64,000 bases of DNA from an uncultured Chloroflexia bacterium (GTDB lineage Bacteria; Chloroflexota; Limnocylindria; QHBO01): assembly GCA_963825525.1 (NCBI GenBank), contig CAWGTN010000002.1:224001-288000 (forward strand). Direction: 5' to 3'. A program made the position numbers. Below, piece by piece: positions 45,001 through 51,000 of this stretch (position 1 is the first letter of the stretch; each line of letters begins with the position of its first letter).

Positions 45001-48000
45001 TCGCCAAGGACGCGAAGAGCGCAATCGTCGACGAATACGCCACGCACGAGGGCGATACGGGATCACCCGAGGTGCAGATTGCGCTTCTCACCGAGCGGAT
45101 CAAGTCGCTGACTGATCATCTGCGCAGCTACCCGAAGGACAATCACTCGCGCCGCGGGCTGCTCAAGCTCGTCGGGCAGCGCCGGCGGCTGCTCGCGTAT
45201 CTGGTCCGCAACGATGTCGACCGATACCGCACCGTCATCGGCAGCCTGGGGCTCCGCCGCTAGACACGACCCGCGATCAGACCCGGGACACAAACGGTCC
45301 TGGGTTTCGCACATCGCACGAACTCAATTGGCATCCACCCCCGCCTGACGCCTGCGCTCATGTGAGCGCGCCACGGGAATCGAGCGTCGGATGCCACGCC
45401 AAACACTTCTGGAGGAATCAGTGGCAATCACTCACGAAGCCGAAATCGGCGGCAAGGTCTTCAGCATGGAGGCCGGCAAGCTCGCCGAGCAGGCGGACGG
45501 GGCCGTCATCGTTCGATACGGTGACTCCGTCGTCCTCGCGACTGCGGTCGCATCCAAGGAGCCCCGCGAGGGCGCCGACTTCTTCCCGCTCACCGTCGAC
45601 TACGAGGAGCGGATGTACGCCGCGGGCAAGATCCCGGGCGGATTCATCAAGCGCGAGTCGCGCCCGTCGGAGGCCGCCATCCTGGCGATGCGCCTCACGG
45701 ACCGCCCGCTCCGCCCGCTCTTCCCGAAGGGCTACTTCAACGACGTTCAGGTCGTCCTGACGGTCCTGTCGACCGACCAGGAGAATGACCCGGACATCCT
45801 TGCCCTCAACGGCGCATCAGCCGCCCTGAGCATCAGCAACATCCCGTTCATGGGCCCGGTCGGCGCCGTGCGCGTCGGTCGAATCGGCGGCGAGTTCGTC
45901 ACCAACCCGACGAACACGGAGCTGGCGACCAGCGAGCTCGACCTCGTGGTCGCAGGCACGCGCGAGGCCGTCATGATGGTCGAGGCGGGCGCGAACATCC
46001 TGCCCGAGTCCGTCATGGCCGACGCCATCGCCTACGGTCACAGCGAGCTCCAGAAGTCGATCGACCTCCAGGAGAAGCTGGTTGCCTCGGCAGGCACCCC
46101 GAAGAAGGTGCCGTTCGTGGGTCCGAAGGCTCCCTCGGTCGTGCAGCTCGGCAAGGCCCTGGCCGAGTCGAAGAACGAGTTCGTGGTCTTCGACCTCGAA
46201 ACGACGGCCATCAAGCCGGAGCACGGCTACATCGTGGACATCGCGGCGCTGCGGCTCCGCGATGGACAGATCGTCGACCGGTTCGAGACCCTCGTGAACC
46301 CCGGGCGCCCGATCGTCGGCCACCAGGTTCATGGCATCAAGACCGATGACGTCGCCAATGCGCCCACCGCCGCCGATGCGCTCACCCAGTTCGTCGACTG
46401 GGTCGGTGACACGCCGGTCGTGGCGCACAACTCGTCATTCGACGTCCCGTTCGTCCTCCGCCACCTGCCGACTGACCGCACCTGGAACCCGAGCGCCGTG
46501 TACGACACCCTGCAGCTCGGATATCAGCTCTACCCGGACGCGGGCGGCTACAAGCTCGCCGATCTCGTGCGATTCGTCTTCGGCCGCGACCATGCGTCCG
46601 CGCATCGGGCGATGCCCGATGCCGAGGCCACCGCGGAGCTCTTCCTGCACTTCACCAGCGGACTGTCGGAGCGCCTCGATGCGGTGCGACAGGACATCGC
46701 CGACGAGGTGCGTCGCGCCCGTGACAACTACAACCGCGCCGAGCAGGGCGATCGGCTCGAGGACATTCGCCGGCGCCACGGCATCGGCTCTTCGCTCATG
46801 GACACGATCACCAAGGCGACCGTCCGCGAGCTGGTCCTGAACGAGAACGTCCGCATCGACGGGCGCGACACGAAGACGATCCGGCCGATCAGCGTGGAGG
46901 TCGGCGTGCTGCCGCGAACCCACGGCTCGGGCCTCTTCACCCGCGGCCAGACGCAGGCACTCTCGATCGCGACGCTCGGACCGAGCAGCGATGTCCAGCG
47001 CATGGACACGATCTCACCGGAGACCGAGAAGCGCTACATGCACCACTACAACATGCCGCCGTACTCTGTCGGCGAGGCGCGCTTCATGCGTGGGCCCGGT
47101 CGGCGAGAGATCGGTCATGGCGCGTTGGCCGAGCGTGCGCTGGTGCCGGTGCTCCCGGATGTCAGCGAGTTCCCGTACGTGATCCGCGTCGTCAGCGAGT
47201 GCGTGAGCTCGAATGGATCGACCTCGATGGCCTCGACCTGTGGGTCGACGCTGGCTCTCATGGATGCCGGAGTGCCGATCAAGGCGCCGGTCGCCGGTGC
47301 CGCGATGGGGCTGATCAACGACAAGGAGTCGGGTCGCTACGCCGTCCTGACCGACATCACCGGCAAGGAAGACGCCTACGGTGACATGGACTTCAAGGTG
47401 ACCGGGACCGCCGAAGGCGTGACTGCGCTCCAGATGGACATCAAGGTTGCCGGCATCACGACCGAGATCATGCGAGACGCGCTCGAGCAGGCTCGCGAGG
47501 CCCGGCTCCACATCCTGGGCAAGATGACCGAGGTCATCGGCACCAGCCGCGAGGAGCTCAGCCAGTACGCGCCGCGCATCACGACGCTGAAGATCCCCGT
47601 GGACAAGATCCGCGACGTCATCGGCGCCGGCGGCAAGGTGATCCGCCAGATCACCGCTGAGACCGGGACGCAGATCAACGTCGAGGACGACGGTACGATC
47701 CAGATCGCCGCAACCGACGGCGAAGCCGCCAAGAAGGCGATCGCATGGATCGAAGGCCTGACCAAGGACGTGGAGGTCGGCAAGGAGTACCTCGGCAAGG
47801 TGACCCGGATCATGAACTTCGGTGCCTTCGTCGAGATCCTGCCCGGCAAGGAGGGCCTGGTGCACATCAGCCAGCTCGCCGATTACCGGGTGCCGCGCGT
47901 CGAGGACGTGGTCAGCATCGGCGACGAGCTGATGGTGATCGTCACCGAGATCGATCGCATGGGTCGCGTGAACCTGAGCCGCCGCGCGGCGATGGAGCGG

Positions 48001-51000
48001 CACATGGCCAAGGCCGGCGACCGAAGCTGAGCCTGGCCGGCCGTGCGCGATGGTTGACGCGACCGGTCCGATCGGGGGGGTGCGAGGCGCTCGCGCACAT
48101 CGCGGACGAGGTGCGTGGCTGCACACGCTGTGCGCTGTCGCGCGGTCGAACGCATGCCGTCCCTGGCGAGGGGAATGTCCTGAGTGACGTTCTCCTCGTC
48201 GGCGAAGGCCCGGGTGCCCGCGAGGATCGCACCGGCCGCCCATTCGTCGGCCCGGCGGGCGAGCTCCTCACCGAGCTGCTTGCAGCCATCGGCTGGGGAA
48301 GAGAGGACGTGTTCATCACGAACGTCGTGAAGTGCCGGCCGCCGGGAAACCGGGACCCCGAACCGGAGGAGATGACGGCGTGCGCGGGGTACCTGGAGGC
48401 GCAGGAACGCGCGCTCGAACCGGCCGTCGTCGTCACGCTGGGACGGCATTCGTTGGGCCGATACCTGCCAGGTGCCCGAATCAGCGGCATCCATGGCCAT
48501 CTTCGTCGGTCGTACAGCGGTCAGCACGTCTTCCCGATGTACCATCCTGCTGCGGCGCTGCACCAGGCCTCGCTGCGCGAGACGCTGTTCCGCGACATCC
48601 GAGGCCTGCCGGCGGCGTTGCTGGACGCCCGTCGAGCGCTCGAATCGGAGCGCGCGGCATCGGTCCAGGCGCAGACGGCCGCCGAACCGGACGAACGCCC
48701 GGAACGGCAAGCTGACGGTGCCGAACAGACGACCCTTTTCTAGGAGCTTCCATGTCCGATTCCCTGCGCATCATCCCGCTCGGTGGGGTGGGCGAGGTCG
48801 GAAAGAACATCACCGTCATCGAGTTCGATGACGAGATCCTCATCGTGGACTGCGGACTCGCGTTCCCCGAGCCGGAGATGCTCGGTATCGACCTCGTGAT
48901 TCCCGACGCCACGTACCTTGCGGAGAACCGCGATCGAGTGCGCGGGATCATCCTCACGCACGGTCACGAGGACCACACCGGGGCGTTGCCATACGTCCTT
49001 CCGAAGATCCCCGGGACGCCCATCTATGCGACGCGTCTCACCGAGGGGCTGGTCCAGGGGAAGCTTCGCGAGCACAAGCTGCTCGATTCGACGCCGCTTC
49101 ACGTGATCGAGCCCGGGGTCGAGTTCTCGGTCGGCTCGTTCAAGATCGTCCCGTTCCGGGTCAACCACTCGATCCCCGACGGCGTCGGATACGCGATCAC
49201 CACGCGCCTCGGGACGATCGTCCATACCGGTGACTTCAAGTTCGACCACACGCCTCCGGATGGGCGTCGGGCCGACCTGGGCCTGATCGCGGAGATCGGC
49301 AACCGCGGCGTCGAATTCCTGCTCAGCGACTCGACACGCGCCGAGAAGGAGGGCTACACCCTGTCCGAATCCACGGTCGGGGAGAGCCTGGGGCGCCTGG
49401 TGGGCGAGGCACCCGGTCGCGTCATCGTTGCCACCTTCGCCAGCAACATCGGCCGCGTCCAGCAGGTGATCGACGCTGCCTGGGCGCACGGCCGCAAGAT
49501 GGTCGCCCTGGGGCGGAGCATGGAGCAGAACACCGCGATCGCCCTTGAGCGAGGCTATCTCGACGCGCGTGACGGGACCCTGGTCAAGAAGGATCAGCTC
49601 CAGCGCCTGTCGAAGGAGCAGCTGGTCGTCATGACCACCGGCTCCCAGGGAGAGCCGATGAGCGGGCTCACCCGGATGAGCAACCGCGACCACCGCAACA
49701 TCACGATCGAGCCCGGAGACACCGTCATCGTGTCGGCAAGCCCGATTCCGGGCAACGAGGAGGCAGTCGCCAAGACGATCGACAACCTCTTCAAGGAAGG
49801 CGCGATGGTCCACTACGAGCCGCTCGTGCACTGCCACGTGTCGGGCCACGGGTCACGCGAGGAGCTCAAGCTCATGCTGGGGCTGGTCAAGCCTCGCCAC
49901 TTCGTGCCGATCCACGGCGAGTACCGAATGCTCGTCCAGCACGCGCTGCTGGCCGAGGGGGCCGGCGTGGACGTGGACAAGATCTTCATCCTGGAGAACG
50001 GACAGGTCGTCGAGTTCGACGGGCAGCGGGGCCGCATGGCCGGAACGGTGACCGCCGGCGCCGTGCTGGTGGATGGCATCGCGGCCATTGACGGGATCGA
50101 CGGGGTCGTGCTGCGCGATCGCCGCATGCTCGCGTCGGATGGCGTCGTCATGGTGGCCCTCACGATCGACGCCAAGACCGGTCAGCCGGTCGGTCTGCCG
50201 GACCTGGTGAGCCGAGGATTCCTGTCGGATCCCGAGGATCCGATCATGGGTGCGGCACGCGACCATCTCATGGCCGCGCTCCGCCAACGGCACGAGGACG
50301 AGCACAACGCCGAAGCCGGATACGTGAAGACGAAGATCCGGGACACGCTGAGCCGGTTCTTCCATCAGCGAACGAAGCGACGACCGATGATCCTGCCCAT
50401 CGTGATGGAGGTCTGACCCGGCCCGTGGCCACTCGACGGAGGACGACCACCCGACGGCGGCCGACGCGACGTCGTCGGCAGCGGAACCCGATGGTCATCA
50501 GCGCGCGTTTCGTGCGCGAGGTGATGGCCTTCGTGCTGCTCCTGCTCGCGATCATCAGCGTCATCGCGCTGTTCGCGCCCGACGCGGGGGCAATCGTGAA
50601 GCCATGGCACGACATCTTGTCGAGCTCGCTCGGCTGGGGCATCGCGTTCGCCGCCCCACTGCTCGCCGGGTTCGCGGTCATGCTGTGGATGAAGACGATG
50701 CCCGCGGAACGCTGGATGGCGGCAACCGGAGCCGCCGTCTTCGCCATGGCGCTGCTGGGCATGTTCCACCTCGCGGTCGGCGGCGGCTTCGACGCCATAG
50801 CCAGTGGCCAGGGCGGTGGAGCCATCGGCTTCGCGGTGAGTGCGCTGCTCCTGGGTGCCGTGGGCAGCGCGGGCGCGTGGATCGTGCTGGTGCTGCTTGC
50901 CGTGGTGGGGCTCCTCCTCTACTTCAACATGACGATCGGAGACCTGATCGCCGCGTACCTGGCTGGACGGGACGAGCGTCGCGAGATGGAGGCCGATGAG

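Follow-up and report, generated by a model that had tools for sequence, protein, structure and literature searches.

Introduction

The eukaryotic RNA exosome joins a ring of PH domains to Rrp6, a hydrolytic 3'-5' exonuclease of the DEDD superfamily. A DEDDh exonuclease nested in another carrier domain is known from PolC, where the carrier is the PHP domain. In ExoDinG a DEDDh domain acts on both RNA and DNA, the B. subtilis form on the RNA of R-loops (accessible part of PMC12525004), while Listeria DinG is described as a 3'-5' exoribonuclease on unprocessed rRNA whose work RNase R and PNPase are suggested to complete (accessible part of PMC12774634). PNPase itself also acts on unprocessed rRNA and on RNA:DNA hybrids, and B. 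subtilis PNPase digested R-loop RNA in the available text of a preprint (PMC13251995).

Here we describe one branch of the Limnocylindria, a class of soil and freshwater bacteria, in which the RNA-degrading PNPase has a further exonuclease domain, apparently intact, nested within it. No published description of a PNPase with a nested DEDDh exonuclease was found in the literature. The window analysed is a stretch of 64,000 nucleotides from a metagenome-derived genome (G000; 2.58 Mb in 4 contigs, 91.8% complete), which is compared below with relatives from five families of the class (f1 to f5).

A DEDDh exonuclease interrupts the helical linker of PNPase

The pnp gene (45391..48030, plus strand, as are all features given here) is a single ATG-to-stop ORF of 879 aa plus stop that encodes a full PNPase with a nested DEDDh exonuclease, as judged by Pfam, NCBIfam and PDB sequence searches. 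The PNPase model TIGR03591 (NCBIfam) matches in two stretches with 984 bits against a cut-off of 525, and RNase_PH (5.1e-55) and RNase_PH_C (both Pfam) each match in two stretches as well, in agreement with an earlier note that had reported an 879-aa PNPase with an inserted exonuclease. The order within the ORF is the first RNase PH domain (PH1; 45463..45846, G000:C2:269463-269846; Pfam) with its RNase_PH_C part (residues 155-218; Pfam), helix 1 of the all-alpha linker domain (46129..46164, residues 247-258), the DEDDh (DnaQ-like) 3'-5' exonuclease (46177..46656, residues 263-422; PF00929, AF2 and Foldseek), linker helices 2-4 (46663..46845, residues 425-485), the second and phosphorolytic RNase PH domain (PH2; 46879..47277, G000:C2:270879-271277; Pfam and conserved residues), the KH domain (47581..47754, residues 731-788; Pfam) and the S1 domain (47770..47985, residues 794-865; Pfam). 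RNase_T (PF00929) covers residues 265-418 with 5.4e-23 and 82.8 bits, against a cut-off of 24.

The boundaries of the insert can be read against canonical PNPase. In the PDB sequence search 5yjj residues 21-266 align with 16-262 of the query and 312-707 with 469-866, and because the alignment breaks at these points 206 query residues stand against 45 in 5yjj. The spacing between the GKPK and R-x-DGR motifs is 248-254 aa in 30/30 fused PNPases and 88-89 aa in 8/8 canonical PNPases of f2 and f5, a net gain of about 163 aa rather than the "about 228 residues" of the earlier note. Nor is the helical linker replaced, as had been claimed. In the AF2 model four linker helices are kept, one directly before the exonuclease (247-258), within the N-terminal part that aligns with canonical PNPase as far as residue 262, and three after it (425-442, 449-463 and 467-485), and the last 27 positions (55-81) of the PNPase alpha-domain model PF03726, the only ones to match, fall at residues 467-493. 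The linker is thus modelled as an interrupted all-alpha domain, with the exonuclease set between helix 1 and helices 2-4.

The fused form marks one branch of the class

In a tblastn survey of 131 class genomes with the G000 PNPase protein as query, the match ran unbroken through the insert in 42/43 f1, 38/38 f3 and 5/5 f4 genomes. The fused form was therefore present in every genome of these families in which a PNPase was found (85/86, plus G000). In f1, the match in G102 stops at residue 406 where the contig ends, and G060 gave no PNPase match at all. No fused form was found among the f2 and f5 genomes of this survey, where the listed matches (f2 42/43, f5 1/1) came in two pieces, at approximately 16-245 and 470-870, within frames of 740-800 aa. 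Together with the short motif spacing, this upholds the view that these families have a canonical PNPase. A second survey, of 401 genomes across the phylum (query residues 200-520, E<=1e-30), gave full-length matches in 16/16 f1, 23/23 f3, 4/4 f4 and 0/2 f2 genomes; no other sampled Chloroflexota had the fused form, and the two further genomes that matched did so in the exonuclease part only, in other proteins. The distribution described before from smaller samples, with fusion confined to f1, f3 and f4, thus holds in larger ones. PF00929 occurs together with PF01138 in 120/120 listed homologues, again as reported, and Atlas clusters of the fused protein have 125, 164 and 109 members. Given the profile E-values and the conservation in 85 further genomes, a match by chance can be excluded.

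All relatives are metagenome-derived genomes, which invites the suspicion that the assembly is chimeric here or that two genes were read through as one. That such an artefact underlies the fusion is scarcely conceivable: the same unbroken frame recurs across three families, in G000 and in 85 genomes besides, the 120 fused proteins come from four sources (JGI, ENA, NCBI and Logan) and the large Atlas clusters repeat it, GC content is even along the gene (0.64-0.68), and the trees of insert and core agree. For practical purposes we regard this reading as refuted.

The inserts form one clade, both in a careful exonuclease tree (77 rows, support 99/97) and in a quick one (174 rows, support 95). 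The PNPase-core tree, from which the linker was left out, divides the fused clade (support 97) into f1 and f3, with f4 inside f3, and is concordant with the insert tree. From these trees the insert was evidently gained once, in the common ancestor of f1, f3 and f4, and inherited vertically thereafter.

The helicase domain PF13307 shows the complementary pattern noted earlier (f2 42/43, f5 1/1, f1 1/43, f3 1/38 and f4 0/5 among the 131 class genomes), the lone f1 match being a fragment of 85 positions where a contig ends and the lone f3 match lying in a 2041-aa frame. ExoDinG is accordingly present in 43/44 f2 and f5 genomes and essentially missing from f1, f3 and f4. Because the pattern maps to a single branch of the tree, this complementarity counts as one coincidence, and any link between the insert and the loss of ExoDinG rests on that branch. 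A move of the domain between DinG and PNPase, at which the earlier note had hinted, gains no support from the best tree, in which the ExoDinG clade (97/92) leaves out the PNPase inserts; placing the insert beside the ExoDinG exonuclease of the sister families is nevertheless not rejected (AU test, p 0.21). This exclusion also speaks against the insert as a replacement for ExoDinG.

Both active sites appear intact

The five DEDDh residues, D268 and E270 of Exo I (D268-L-E270, the first D and the E; 46192..46200), D351 of Exo II (within HNxxFD; 46441..46443) and H405 and D410 of Exo III (H405-x4-D410, the DEDDh-defining histidine and the last D; 46603..46620), are invariant in 30/30 fused PNPases, which extends to a larger sample the claim that the insert has all catalytic motifs. 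They are unchanged although the exonucleases of f1 and of f3 and f4 are just 38-43% identical, and the Exo I and Exo III residues are also invariant in 78/78 rows of the exonuclease alignment A2. In PH2, R571, R572, S610, S612, D661, D665, D667 and K669 are invariant in 38/38 rows of the PNPase alignment. Judged by these residues, the DEDDh and the phosphorolytic site are both retained.

Nei-Gojobori dN/dS values for the exonuclease are 0.23 (f1, 45 pairs), 0.43 (f3, 105 pairs) and 0.10 (f4, 4 pairs), and for PH2 0.16, 0.16 and 0.05. The insert evolves under purifying selection, while both identity and dN/dS comparisons have it evolving faster than the PH cores, an observation that weighs against a two-headed enzyme. 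The faster evolution would suit a module that binds nucleic acid or nucleotides, or acts as a regulatory lid over the side pore, and does not cleave, and the domain lies at the place where a gating of NDP and phosphate access has been proposed for the helical domain (PMC2723993). Against five invariant catalytic residues at such low identity and dN/dS well under 1, we hold a non-catalytic role to be very improbable.

Relatives of the insert and the host repertoire

AF2 modelled the insert with a pLDDT of 94.1, and the top Foldseek match of this model is the PolC exonuclease 9qpc (rmsd 2.4, 172 columns, 31% identity), followed at ranks 2-3 by S. aureus DinG (8zef/9ii8) and then by epsilon, ExoX and RNase T. 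The best DEDD models in NCBIfam are NF005906 (2.8e-39), PolC NF001688 (3.5e-35) and DinG NF005981 (4.4e-31), which makes PRK07883-type DEDD proteins, PolC and DinG the nearest by sequence. In the PDB sequence search with the whole protein the PolC exonuclease 2p1j scored 1.9e-19 and DinG 8zef 5e-11. The rank of 2p1j as closest solved exonuclease therefore stands, and the 1.2e-20 given before presumably came from the insert alone. With the insert alone as query, 14 of 1.84e9 representatives reached E<=1e-30, not 35.

Within G000 a profile search gave one PF00929 match (window 46183-46644), none for PF13307 in the 4 contigs of this 91.8% complete genome, and none for PF01612 (NrnC/RNase D type) or PF16473. 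The description of the insert as the genome's only such domain is thus right for PF00929, but two PF13482 (RNase_H_2) frames lie elsewhere, in a family that we take to belong to the same Pfam clan. These frames and the RNase PH that G000 also encodes may provide extra 3' exonuclease capacity. Around pnp lie a 327-aa DHH plus DHHA1 protein (42136..43119; profile matches), an NrnA-like candidate nanoRNase, rpsO (ribosomal protein S15; 44982..45263) directly upstream in the conserved rpsO-pnp order, a UDG-family gene after pnp, and RNase J (554 aa; 48752..50416).

These relatives bear on the substrate of the insert. A built-in oligoribonuclease, in which the DEDDh head is placed near the exit of the ring and hydrolyses the short limit oligonucleotides that PNPase leaves over, as Orn and REXO2 do in trans, would fit the helical domain, which lines a pore adjacent to the phosphorolytic site and faces away from where RNA enters (PMC2723993), the clearing of short RNAs from the human mitochondrial PNPase-SUV3 machinery by the DEDDh enzyme REXO2 (accessible part of PMC7261184), and a genome with no other Orn- or RNase T-type PF00929 gene and no PF01612. 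We nonetheless find it rather unlikely: the best sequence and fold matches (PolC exonuclease, ExoDinG, epsilon and ExoX) trim polymer ends, RNase T comes at Foldseek rank 14 or lower, Orn and REXO2 are absent among the NCBIfam, PDB sequence and Foldseek matches listed, and the NrnA-like gene of the same cluster could already serve.

A part in DNA repair or at stalled forks, in which the head trims 3' ends on a PNPase that is also active on DNA, would agree with family matches led by DNA exonucleases (PRK07883-type DEDD and PolC), with the C-terminal region of the PRK07883-type relative G341, which by eye we take to be GIY-YIG, with the sole PF00929 domain of G000 and with the UDG-family gene at this locus. 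ExoDinG also prefers DNA in vitro (PMC12774634 and PMC12525004, each in its accessible part), and the available text of PMC2709576 and PMC3241651 ascribes to B. subtilis PNPase a 3'-5' DNase activity and a part in double-strand-break repair. The carrier, however, works on RNA, has KH and S1 domains and sits in a conserved rpsO-pnp setting, and f2 and f5 manage without the insert in a class that has no free DnaQ; a DNA-directed role strikes us as improbable.

A proposed two-headed 3'-5' exonuclease

The reading that we put forward, with about even confidence, is a two-headed 3'-5' exonuclease, phosphorolytic and hydrolytic, that probably serves in place of the lost ExoDinG in RNA quality control and at R-loops. 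The protein would assemble as the usual PNPase trimer, and since the helical domain lies opposite KH and S1 and lines the side pore that leads to the phosphorolytic site, that face is expected to bear three DEDDh domains. PH2 would carry out phosphorolytic, processive decay of RNA threaded through KH and S1, while the DEDDh head, like its nearest relatives, would be a metal-dependent hydrolytic 3'-5' exonuclease on single-stranded 3' ends that degrades RNA without phosphate, so that RNA 3' ends would be attacked in two ways. It would probably start the decay of unprocessed rRNA and remove RNA from RNA:DNA hybrids. Because this lineage is without ExoDinG and the whole class without RNase II/R (RNB, PF00773, 0/131 class genomes, as seen before in fewer), the head most likely covers the nuclease job of ExoDinG. 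Lack of RNase R alone is no sufficient reason for the insert, since f2 and f5 also lack RNB and their PNPase is canonical. The in vitro preference for DNA of the PolC exonuclease, a close characterised relative, counts against an RNA substrate, as does that of DinG (PMC12774634 and PMC12525004, accessible parts).

Comparison with known systems

The fused protein shares with canonical PNPase (5yjj, 3gcm, 4aim and 7ogk) a pair of RNase PH domains, the helical linker domain, KH, S1 and the rpsO-pnp order. Its identity to the solved enzymes is 41-42%, and its whole-protein Foldseek matches are all canonical PNPases as far as they are listed, down to rank 49, as had been observed. The fused protein differs by a 163-aa DEDDh domain inserted into the first loop of its helical domain, and no solved PNPase among the matches listed exceeds 730 residues or has such an insert.

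ExoDinG (S. aureus 8zef/9ii8, L. monocytogenes, B. subtilis and the f2 and f5 form) has the same kind of DEDDh domain, whose targets include RNA, unprocessed rRNA in Listeria (PMC12774634) and R-loop RNA in B. subtilis (PMC12525004), in the accessible parts of both reports. Its carrier is an SF2 helicase with the exonuclease at the N-terminus, whereas here the carrier is a PH-ring phosphorylase, the domain is internal and in the best tree it falls outside the ExoDinG clade. The PolC proofreading exonuclease (2p1j, 9qpc) is the best-scoring solved relative, but carrier and substrate context differ and the PolC equivalog model reaches just 120.9 bits against a cut-off of 873. In the Caulobacter degradosome PNPase is likewise joined by a DEDD-superfamily enzyme, RNase D (accessible part of PMC4245959); there, as in the exosome, it is a DEDDy protein of its own, bound through non-covalent contacts, whereas here the ring subunit itself contains a fused DEDDh domain and the ring is predicted to keep its own phosphorolytic activity. 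Human mitochondrial PNPase-SUV3 and REXO2 offer a DEDDh exonuclease that clears the short products of PNPase (accessible part of PMC7261184), but REXO2 is a separate dimer of the Orn type and the insert described here is of the PolC/DinG type.

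Domain composition of the fused protein

The pnp gene (window 45391-48030, + strand) is one open reading frame that encodes, from ATG to stop, a protein of 879 aa (P0001), and its GC content is even throughout (0.64-0.68). The PNPase domain order is present, comprising the first RNase PH domain (PH1), the all-alpha helical domain, the second RNase PH domain (PH2), KH and S1, with the helical domain split after its first helix by a DEDDh exonuclease (the insert). In the Pfam scan RNase_PH and RNase_PH_C each match in two stretches, KH spans residues 731-788 and S1 794-865, and PF00929 (RNase_T) occupies 265-418 (E 5.4e-23, with a score of 82.8 bits where the cut-off is 24). 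P0001 scores far above the equivalog cut-offs that NCBIfam sets for PNPase (TIGR03591, 984 bits against 525.05; NF008805, 981.3 against 471), both models matching in two stretches with the insert between them, and its middle matches DEDD models (NF005906, 2.8e-39; PolC NF001688, 3.5e-35; DinG NF005981, 4.4e-31) and passes the cut-off of the DnaQ-like domain model TIGR00573 (74.8 bits against 71.5). P0001 thus belongs to the PNPase family as a whole protein and to the DEDDh/DnaQ-like family at the level of a domain. A PDB sequence search divides it likewise: the canonical PNPase 5yjj pairs over its residues 21-266 with P0001 16-262 and over 312-707 with 469-866, and P0001 residues 263-426 match the PolC exonuclease 2p1j (1.9e-19), S. 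aureus DinG 8zef (5e-11) and epsilon (~1e-9).

Other assignments of the whole protein were rejected. P0001 is not an ExoDinG (a DinG helicase with an N-terminal DEDDh exonuclease), since Pfam finds no helicase domain in it and a profile search of the genome under study (G000) found no PF13307, the DinG-type helicase C-terminal domain. As a PolC-type DNA polymerase III it falls far short (NF001688, 120.9 bits against 873; TIGR01405, 105.8 against 1043), the exonuclease part alone matching, and as a free epsilon subunit (DnaQ proper) it also stays below the cut-offs (TIGR01406, 73.2 bits against 222.7; NF004316, 63.3 against 196). In public records NCBI labels the fused proteins PNPase or 'exonuclease domain-containing protein' and assigns them to Candidatus Limnocylindria, Limnocylindrales or Chloroflexota, JGI often calls them 'DNA polymerase III epsilon subunit family exonuclease', and these single-domain names mask the fused architecture.

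Position and fold of the insert

The insert was located in an alignment (A1) of 30 fused PNPases (G000, nine from family f1, 15 from f3, four from f4 and the database representative P0015) and eight canonical PNPases from families f2 and f5 of the class. The spacing from GKPK to R-x-DGR is 248-254 aa in 30/30 fused sequences versus 88-89 aa in 8/8 canonical ones, and the net gain of ~163 aa is the size of one DEDDh domain. In the AF2 model of the whole protein (pLDDT 83.2, pTM 0.76; 38 alignment rows) a helix (247-258) precedes the alpha/beta exonuclease fold (263-422), which is followed by helices 425-442, 449-463 and 467-485; positions 55-81 of the Pfam PNPase alpha-domain model still match the region of the last helix. 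With one helix before the insert and three after it, the last matching the alpha-domain model, the helical domain is therefore interrupted after helix 1. The earlier note had the helical linker replaced by the insert, a description that the AF2 and Pfam results do not bear out, as four helices are kept. Its statement that the top PDB matches of the whole model are all canonical PNPases holds among the matches listed to rank 49, each of which is a protein of at most 730 residues. The monomer model superposes on trimeric PNPases (Foldseek).

A separate AF2 model of residues 240-490 (78 rows) reaches pLDDT 94.1 and pTM 0.91. In Foldseek this model is closest to PolC 9qpc, at 31% identity and an rmsd of 2.4 over 172 columns, and to S. 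aureus DinG (8zef, 9ii8); a Cas-associated DnaQ domain, epsilon, ExoX, RNase T, ExoI and TREX come next. With a probability of 1.00 to PolC, DinG, epsilon, ExoX and RNase T, the insert has an RNase-H-like DnaQ fold. By closest similarity the insert is not a nanoRNase of Orn, REXO2 or RNase T type: RNase T appears first at Foldseek rank 14, Orn/REXO2 is absent among the matches listed, and neither Orn nor RNase T models are among the best 25 NCBIfam families for P0001.

The alignment also separates the two PNPase types outside the insert. All eight canonical f2/f5 proteins (L066-L073) carry an Arg/Gly-rich C-terminal tail of ~30-50 residues of the GGFR...GPPR type (A1 columns ~880-956), which is absent from 30/30 fused PNPases; one f1 protein (L062, from genome G099) has a different long C-terminal tail. 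The loop matching the E. coli FFRR channel-aperture loop (window ~45637-45660, residues 83-90, A1 columns ~84-92) is clade-specific, reading GGFIKRE in f1/f3, GGYIKRE in f4 and GSFPRRE in canonical f2/f5, and lies within a region of low AF2 confidence (residues 74-91).

Conservation of both active sites

All 30 fused sequences keep the catalytic residues of the insert without change (30/30): D268 with E270 in Exo I, D351 in Exo II, and H405 with D410 in Exo III. Exo III is Hx4D, of the His rather than the Tyr type, which places the domain among the DEDDh exonucleases, and the Exo I and Exo III residues (D, E, H, D) are invariant in 78/78 rows of the DEDDh-domain alignment (A2), including 49 free-standing relatives. 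In PH2, columns R571, R572, S610, S612, D661, D665, D667 and K669, which we take to bind phosphate and metal in the E. coli enzyme, are invariant in 38/38 PNPases (A1). Judged by these residues, both active sites of the fused enzyme look intact. That the insert is instead a non-catalytic lid seems to us very improbable.

Identity between f1 and f3/f4 is 38-43% in the exonuclease as against 67-72% in the PNPase core. Nei-Gojobori dN/dS ratios, which are rough because dS (0.4-1.3) is probably underestimated at 65-70% GC, are 0.23 for the exonuclease and 0.16 for PH2 in f1 (45 exonuclease pairs), 0.43 and 0.16 in f3 (105 pairs), and 0.10 and 0.05 in f4 (4 pairs). The exonuclease is under purifying selection, looser than that on PH2.

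Distribution of the fusion

In a class sample of 131 genomes searched by tblastn with whole P0001, the match crosses the insert without a break in 42/43 f1, 38/38 f3 and 5/5 f4 genomes. Within f1, the match in G102 ends at residue 406 at a contig end, and G060 has no PNPase match. In f2 (42/43 with a match) and f5 (1/1) the match falls into two pieces, ~16-245 and ~470-870, in frames of 740-800 aa among the matches listed. A phylum sample of 401 genomes, queried with residues 200-520 at E<=1e-30, gave full-length matches in f1 (16/16), f3 (23/23) and f4 (4/4) and in 0/2 f2 genomes; only two genomes of other families match, both through the exonuclease part alone, G464 with an ExoDinG and G341 with a 603-aa DEDD protein. 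We consider it scarcely conceivable that the fusion is an artefact.

A collection of 5.8 billion proteins holds 859 that match residues 230-480 at E<=1e-10, and PF00929 and PF01138 occur together in 120/120 among the matches listed. Against 1.84 billion representatives the insert alone gives 26229 matches at 1e-3, 9583 at 1e-10 and 14 at 1e-30. The PNPase flanks are also matched by 13 of the best 150 representatives, all fragments except P0015 (864 aa), and those long enough for the tree all fall within the insert clade. ESM Atlas clusters with PF01138 and PF00929 have 125, 164 and 109 members, all labelled 'commonest Chloroflexota'. In six metatranscriptome runs the share of sampled words was 0.07-0.16, small shares that we do not read as a sign of expression or habitat.

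Seven genomes in the tallies are flagged as unpublished (f1: G084, G093, G120; f2: G067, G091, G106, G112). No conclusion hinges on them, because the tallies hold after their removal (39/40 f1 genomes fused, 38/39 f2 genomes with PF13307), and the alignments and trees are free of their sequences.

Phylogeny of the insert

Two trees of DEDDh domains were built, a quick tree of 174 rows and a careful maximum-likelihood tree of 77 of these; left out of the 174-row set were 11 duplicate f2 loci (L006, L007, L010-L012, L014-L019) and rows with fewer than ~140 of 174 core positions. In the careful tree the PNPase inserts form one clade (99/97), as they also do in the quick tree; it splits into f1 and f3, and f4 falls inside f3. 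A tree of the PNPase core without the linker likewise sets f1 against f3 plus f4 and supports the fused clade at 97, although it does not root the class: four outgroups lie between f5 and the fused clade, and the G464 outgroup row is a wrong ORF (end branch 10). The agreement of the two trees points to one insertion event with vertical inheritance since.

The source of the inserted domain is less sharply placed. In the careful tree the f2/f5 ExoDinG domains (100/99) lie inside a wider ExoDinG clade (97/92) and the inserts outside it, a placement also found in the quick tree; the deep backbone of the DEDDh tree is weak (63/93). Forcing the inserts together with f2/f5 ExoDinG costs 20.6 lnL (p-AU 0.209), so that the AU test does not reject a transfer into PNPase of the DinG exonuclease native to the class, although this is not the best tree. 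The insert is 43% identical both to the G464 ExoDinG (E 6.5e-32) and to the G341 DEDD protein (E 7.2e-31), and is less similar to f2/f5 ExoDinG (E 1e-14 to 1e-20).

ExoDinG and other PF00929 proteins in the class

PF13307 is present in 42/43 f2 genomes and the single f5 genome (1/1), and in 1/43 f1, 1/38 f3 and 0/5 f4 genomes. Among the 43 f2/f5 genomes with PF13307, a comparison of coordinates by hand shows that in 38 the two matches share contig and strand, PF00929 lying ~2.1 kb upstream; in four others PF00929 is on a different contig, and one has no PF00929 match. Full scans of one f2 (G001) and one f5 (G013) protein find an N-terminal PF00929 (9-163), DEAD and then PF13307 Helicase_C_2 (714-869), which identifies them as ExoDinG, and this layout corresponds to the ExoDinG type in a review of DinG-like proteins (PMC11981726). 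The complementarity of PF00929-in-PNPase and PF13307 that the earlier note described is a real pattern, although its weight is that of one coincidence rather than 85, because both changes map to a single branch. The sole f1 match (G036:C69:6-260) is a fragment (85 positions) from the edge of a small contig, and the sole f3 match (G086:C10:19756-22632) is a 2041-aa frame with a weak PF00929 match as well (2.5e-6); these could be remnants, contamination or another system.

PF00929 itself occurs in 128/131 class genomes, mostly as a single copy, with extra free-standing copies in 4/5 f4 genomes, some f2 genera and a few f1 and f3 genomes. The second f4 copies (G011:C2:301392-301853, G056:C23:5052-5513, G065:C5:11094-11555 and G104:C8:8005-8472) lie in frames of 206-246 aa, beside a fused PNPase in genomes of ~1.0-1.4 Mb, and were not recovered by phmmer with the insert at E<=1e-5. 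An extra f1 locus, L004 (G012:C27:1-2004), has the best PF00929 E-value of the class scan (1.3e-35). The domain forms the C-terminal end of a 667-aa open frame, the first 450 residues of which appear by eye to be a putative sensor region; it groups with the free-standing f2 copies L020 and L048. A few f1/f3 genomes encode additional DEDDh proteins, 307-443 aa long and extended at the C-terminus (L043 in G030:C18, L049 in G029:C10, L042 in G012:C1 and L050 in G026:C116), of which L042 and L050 look similar to each other and to the DEDDh-BRCT representatives P0004 and P0062.

Gene neighbourhood and nuclease repertoire

The gene order around pnp is NrnA-like DHH/DHHA1, truB, ribF, rpsO, pnp, a UDG-family gene, RNase J and ftsK. 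Read from its first ATG, the UDG-family ORF (window 47745-48743, + strand) would begin within pnp and share the final 286 nt of that gene; because the Pfam domain begins only at ORF residue 140, the true start probably lies further downstream. A similar overlap, of 122 nt, joins the NrnA-like ORF (42136-43119) and the truB ORF (42998-43993).

Within G000 the insert of pnp is the single PF00929 match, and PF01612, PF16473 and RNB (PF00773; 0/131 in the class) were not found, absences to be read as 'not found' because the genome is 91.8% complete. There is one 252-aa RNase PH frame besides pnp, and there are two DHH frames. The only other RNase-H-fold domains found are two PF13482 (RNase_H_2) matches outside the window, G000:C2:511809-512321 (+) and G000:C3:167800-168363 (-), in frames of 530 and 1190 aa that may, we presume, be exonucleases. 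To call the insert the genome's only such domain, as had been done, is accordingly correct for the RNase T/DnaQ family and too broad for every RNase-H-fold exonuclease.

This inventory bears on what the insert might do. It could act as a built-in oligoribonuclease, on the argument that the genome has no other nanoRNase, yet an NrnA-like gene lies in the pnp cluster and weakens that argument, and the affinity of the insert is of PolC/DinG rather than Orn type; we regard this reading as unlikely. A role of the DEDDh head at DNA ends strikes us as slightly less likely again.

Discussion

Computation shows the architecture, the conserved catalytic residues at both sites and the single origin, as well as that selection is purifying and that neither ExoDinG nor RNase II/R was found, and these results frame a proposal for function. 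The helical domain of E. coli PNPase sits on the ring face opposite S1/KH and contributes to a pore that reaches the active site besides the central channel (PMC2723993). By analogy, the trimer, 2637 residues in all, would bear three hydrolytic DEDDh heads on the ring face opposite RNA entry, and 3' ends might be attacked in two chemistries, phosphorolytic and hydrolytic. Listeria ExoDinG is described as a 3'-5' exoribonuclease that initiates the breakdown of unprocessed rRNA, which RNase R and PNPase are suggested to complete (PMC12774634), and a preprint (PMC13251995) reports that B. subtilis PNPase degrades RNA within R-loops. The fused PNPase may take over ExoDinG nuclease jobs in a lineage without the helicase. 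We put the chances at about even that it is such a two-headed trimer, phosphorolytic and hydrolytic, covering ExoDinG nuclease roles.

PNPase is among the most-studied RNA-decay enzymes, and to our knowledge its domain plan is regarded as fixed from bacteria to human mitochondria and the helical domain as the one with the least-understood role. We found no description of a PNPase with an inserted exonuclease in open-access papers and bioRxiv, supplements excluded. Here a second, seemingly intact nuclease is nested in the helical domain, and three families of a class widespread in soil and fresh water have retained it. The fusion may serve as a natural experiment on the role of the helical domain and side pore, on the coupling of phosphorolytic and hydrolytic 3' decay in one particle, which is the logic of the eukaryotic exosome, and on the purpose of the ExoDinG nuclease (placed by recent work in rRNA quality control and at R-loops), the helicase having been dropped in this lineage.

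The eukaryotic exosome works with Rrp6, a PH-domain ring together with a DEDD hydrolase. More tentatively, a housekeeping DEDDh 3'-5' exo(ribo)nuclease could have switched carrier within one class, from the DinG helicase (f2/f5) to the PNPase ring (f1/f3/f4), making the fused enzyme a bacterial covalent counterpart of exosome plus Rrp6; we see this as possible and somewhat doubtful. If true, a PH ring would feed or cooperate with a tethered DEDD hydrolase, with six active sites and two chemistries per particle. Were the heads also to pass substrates to each other, for instance channel-stalled RNA or short products exiting the side pore that are handed over to the DEDDh site, processive RNA decay of a new type would result. 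PNPase also occurs with RNase D in the Caulobacter degradosome (PMC4245959), and human PNPase is paired with REXO2 (PMC7261184). The likeness to the exosome with Rrp6, the Caulobacter degradosome and human PNPase with REXO2 lies in a PH ring teamed with a DEDD hydrolase; unlike in these systems, the two are here covalently joined and the ring is predicted to be still active.
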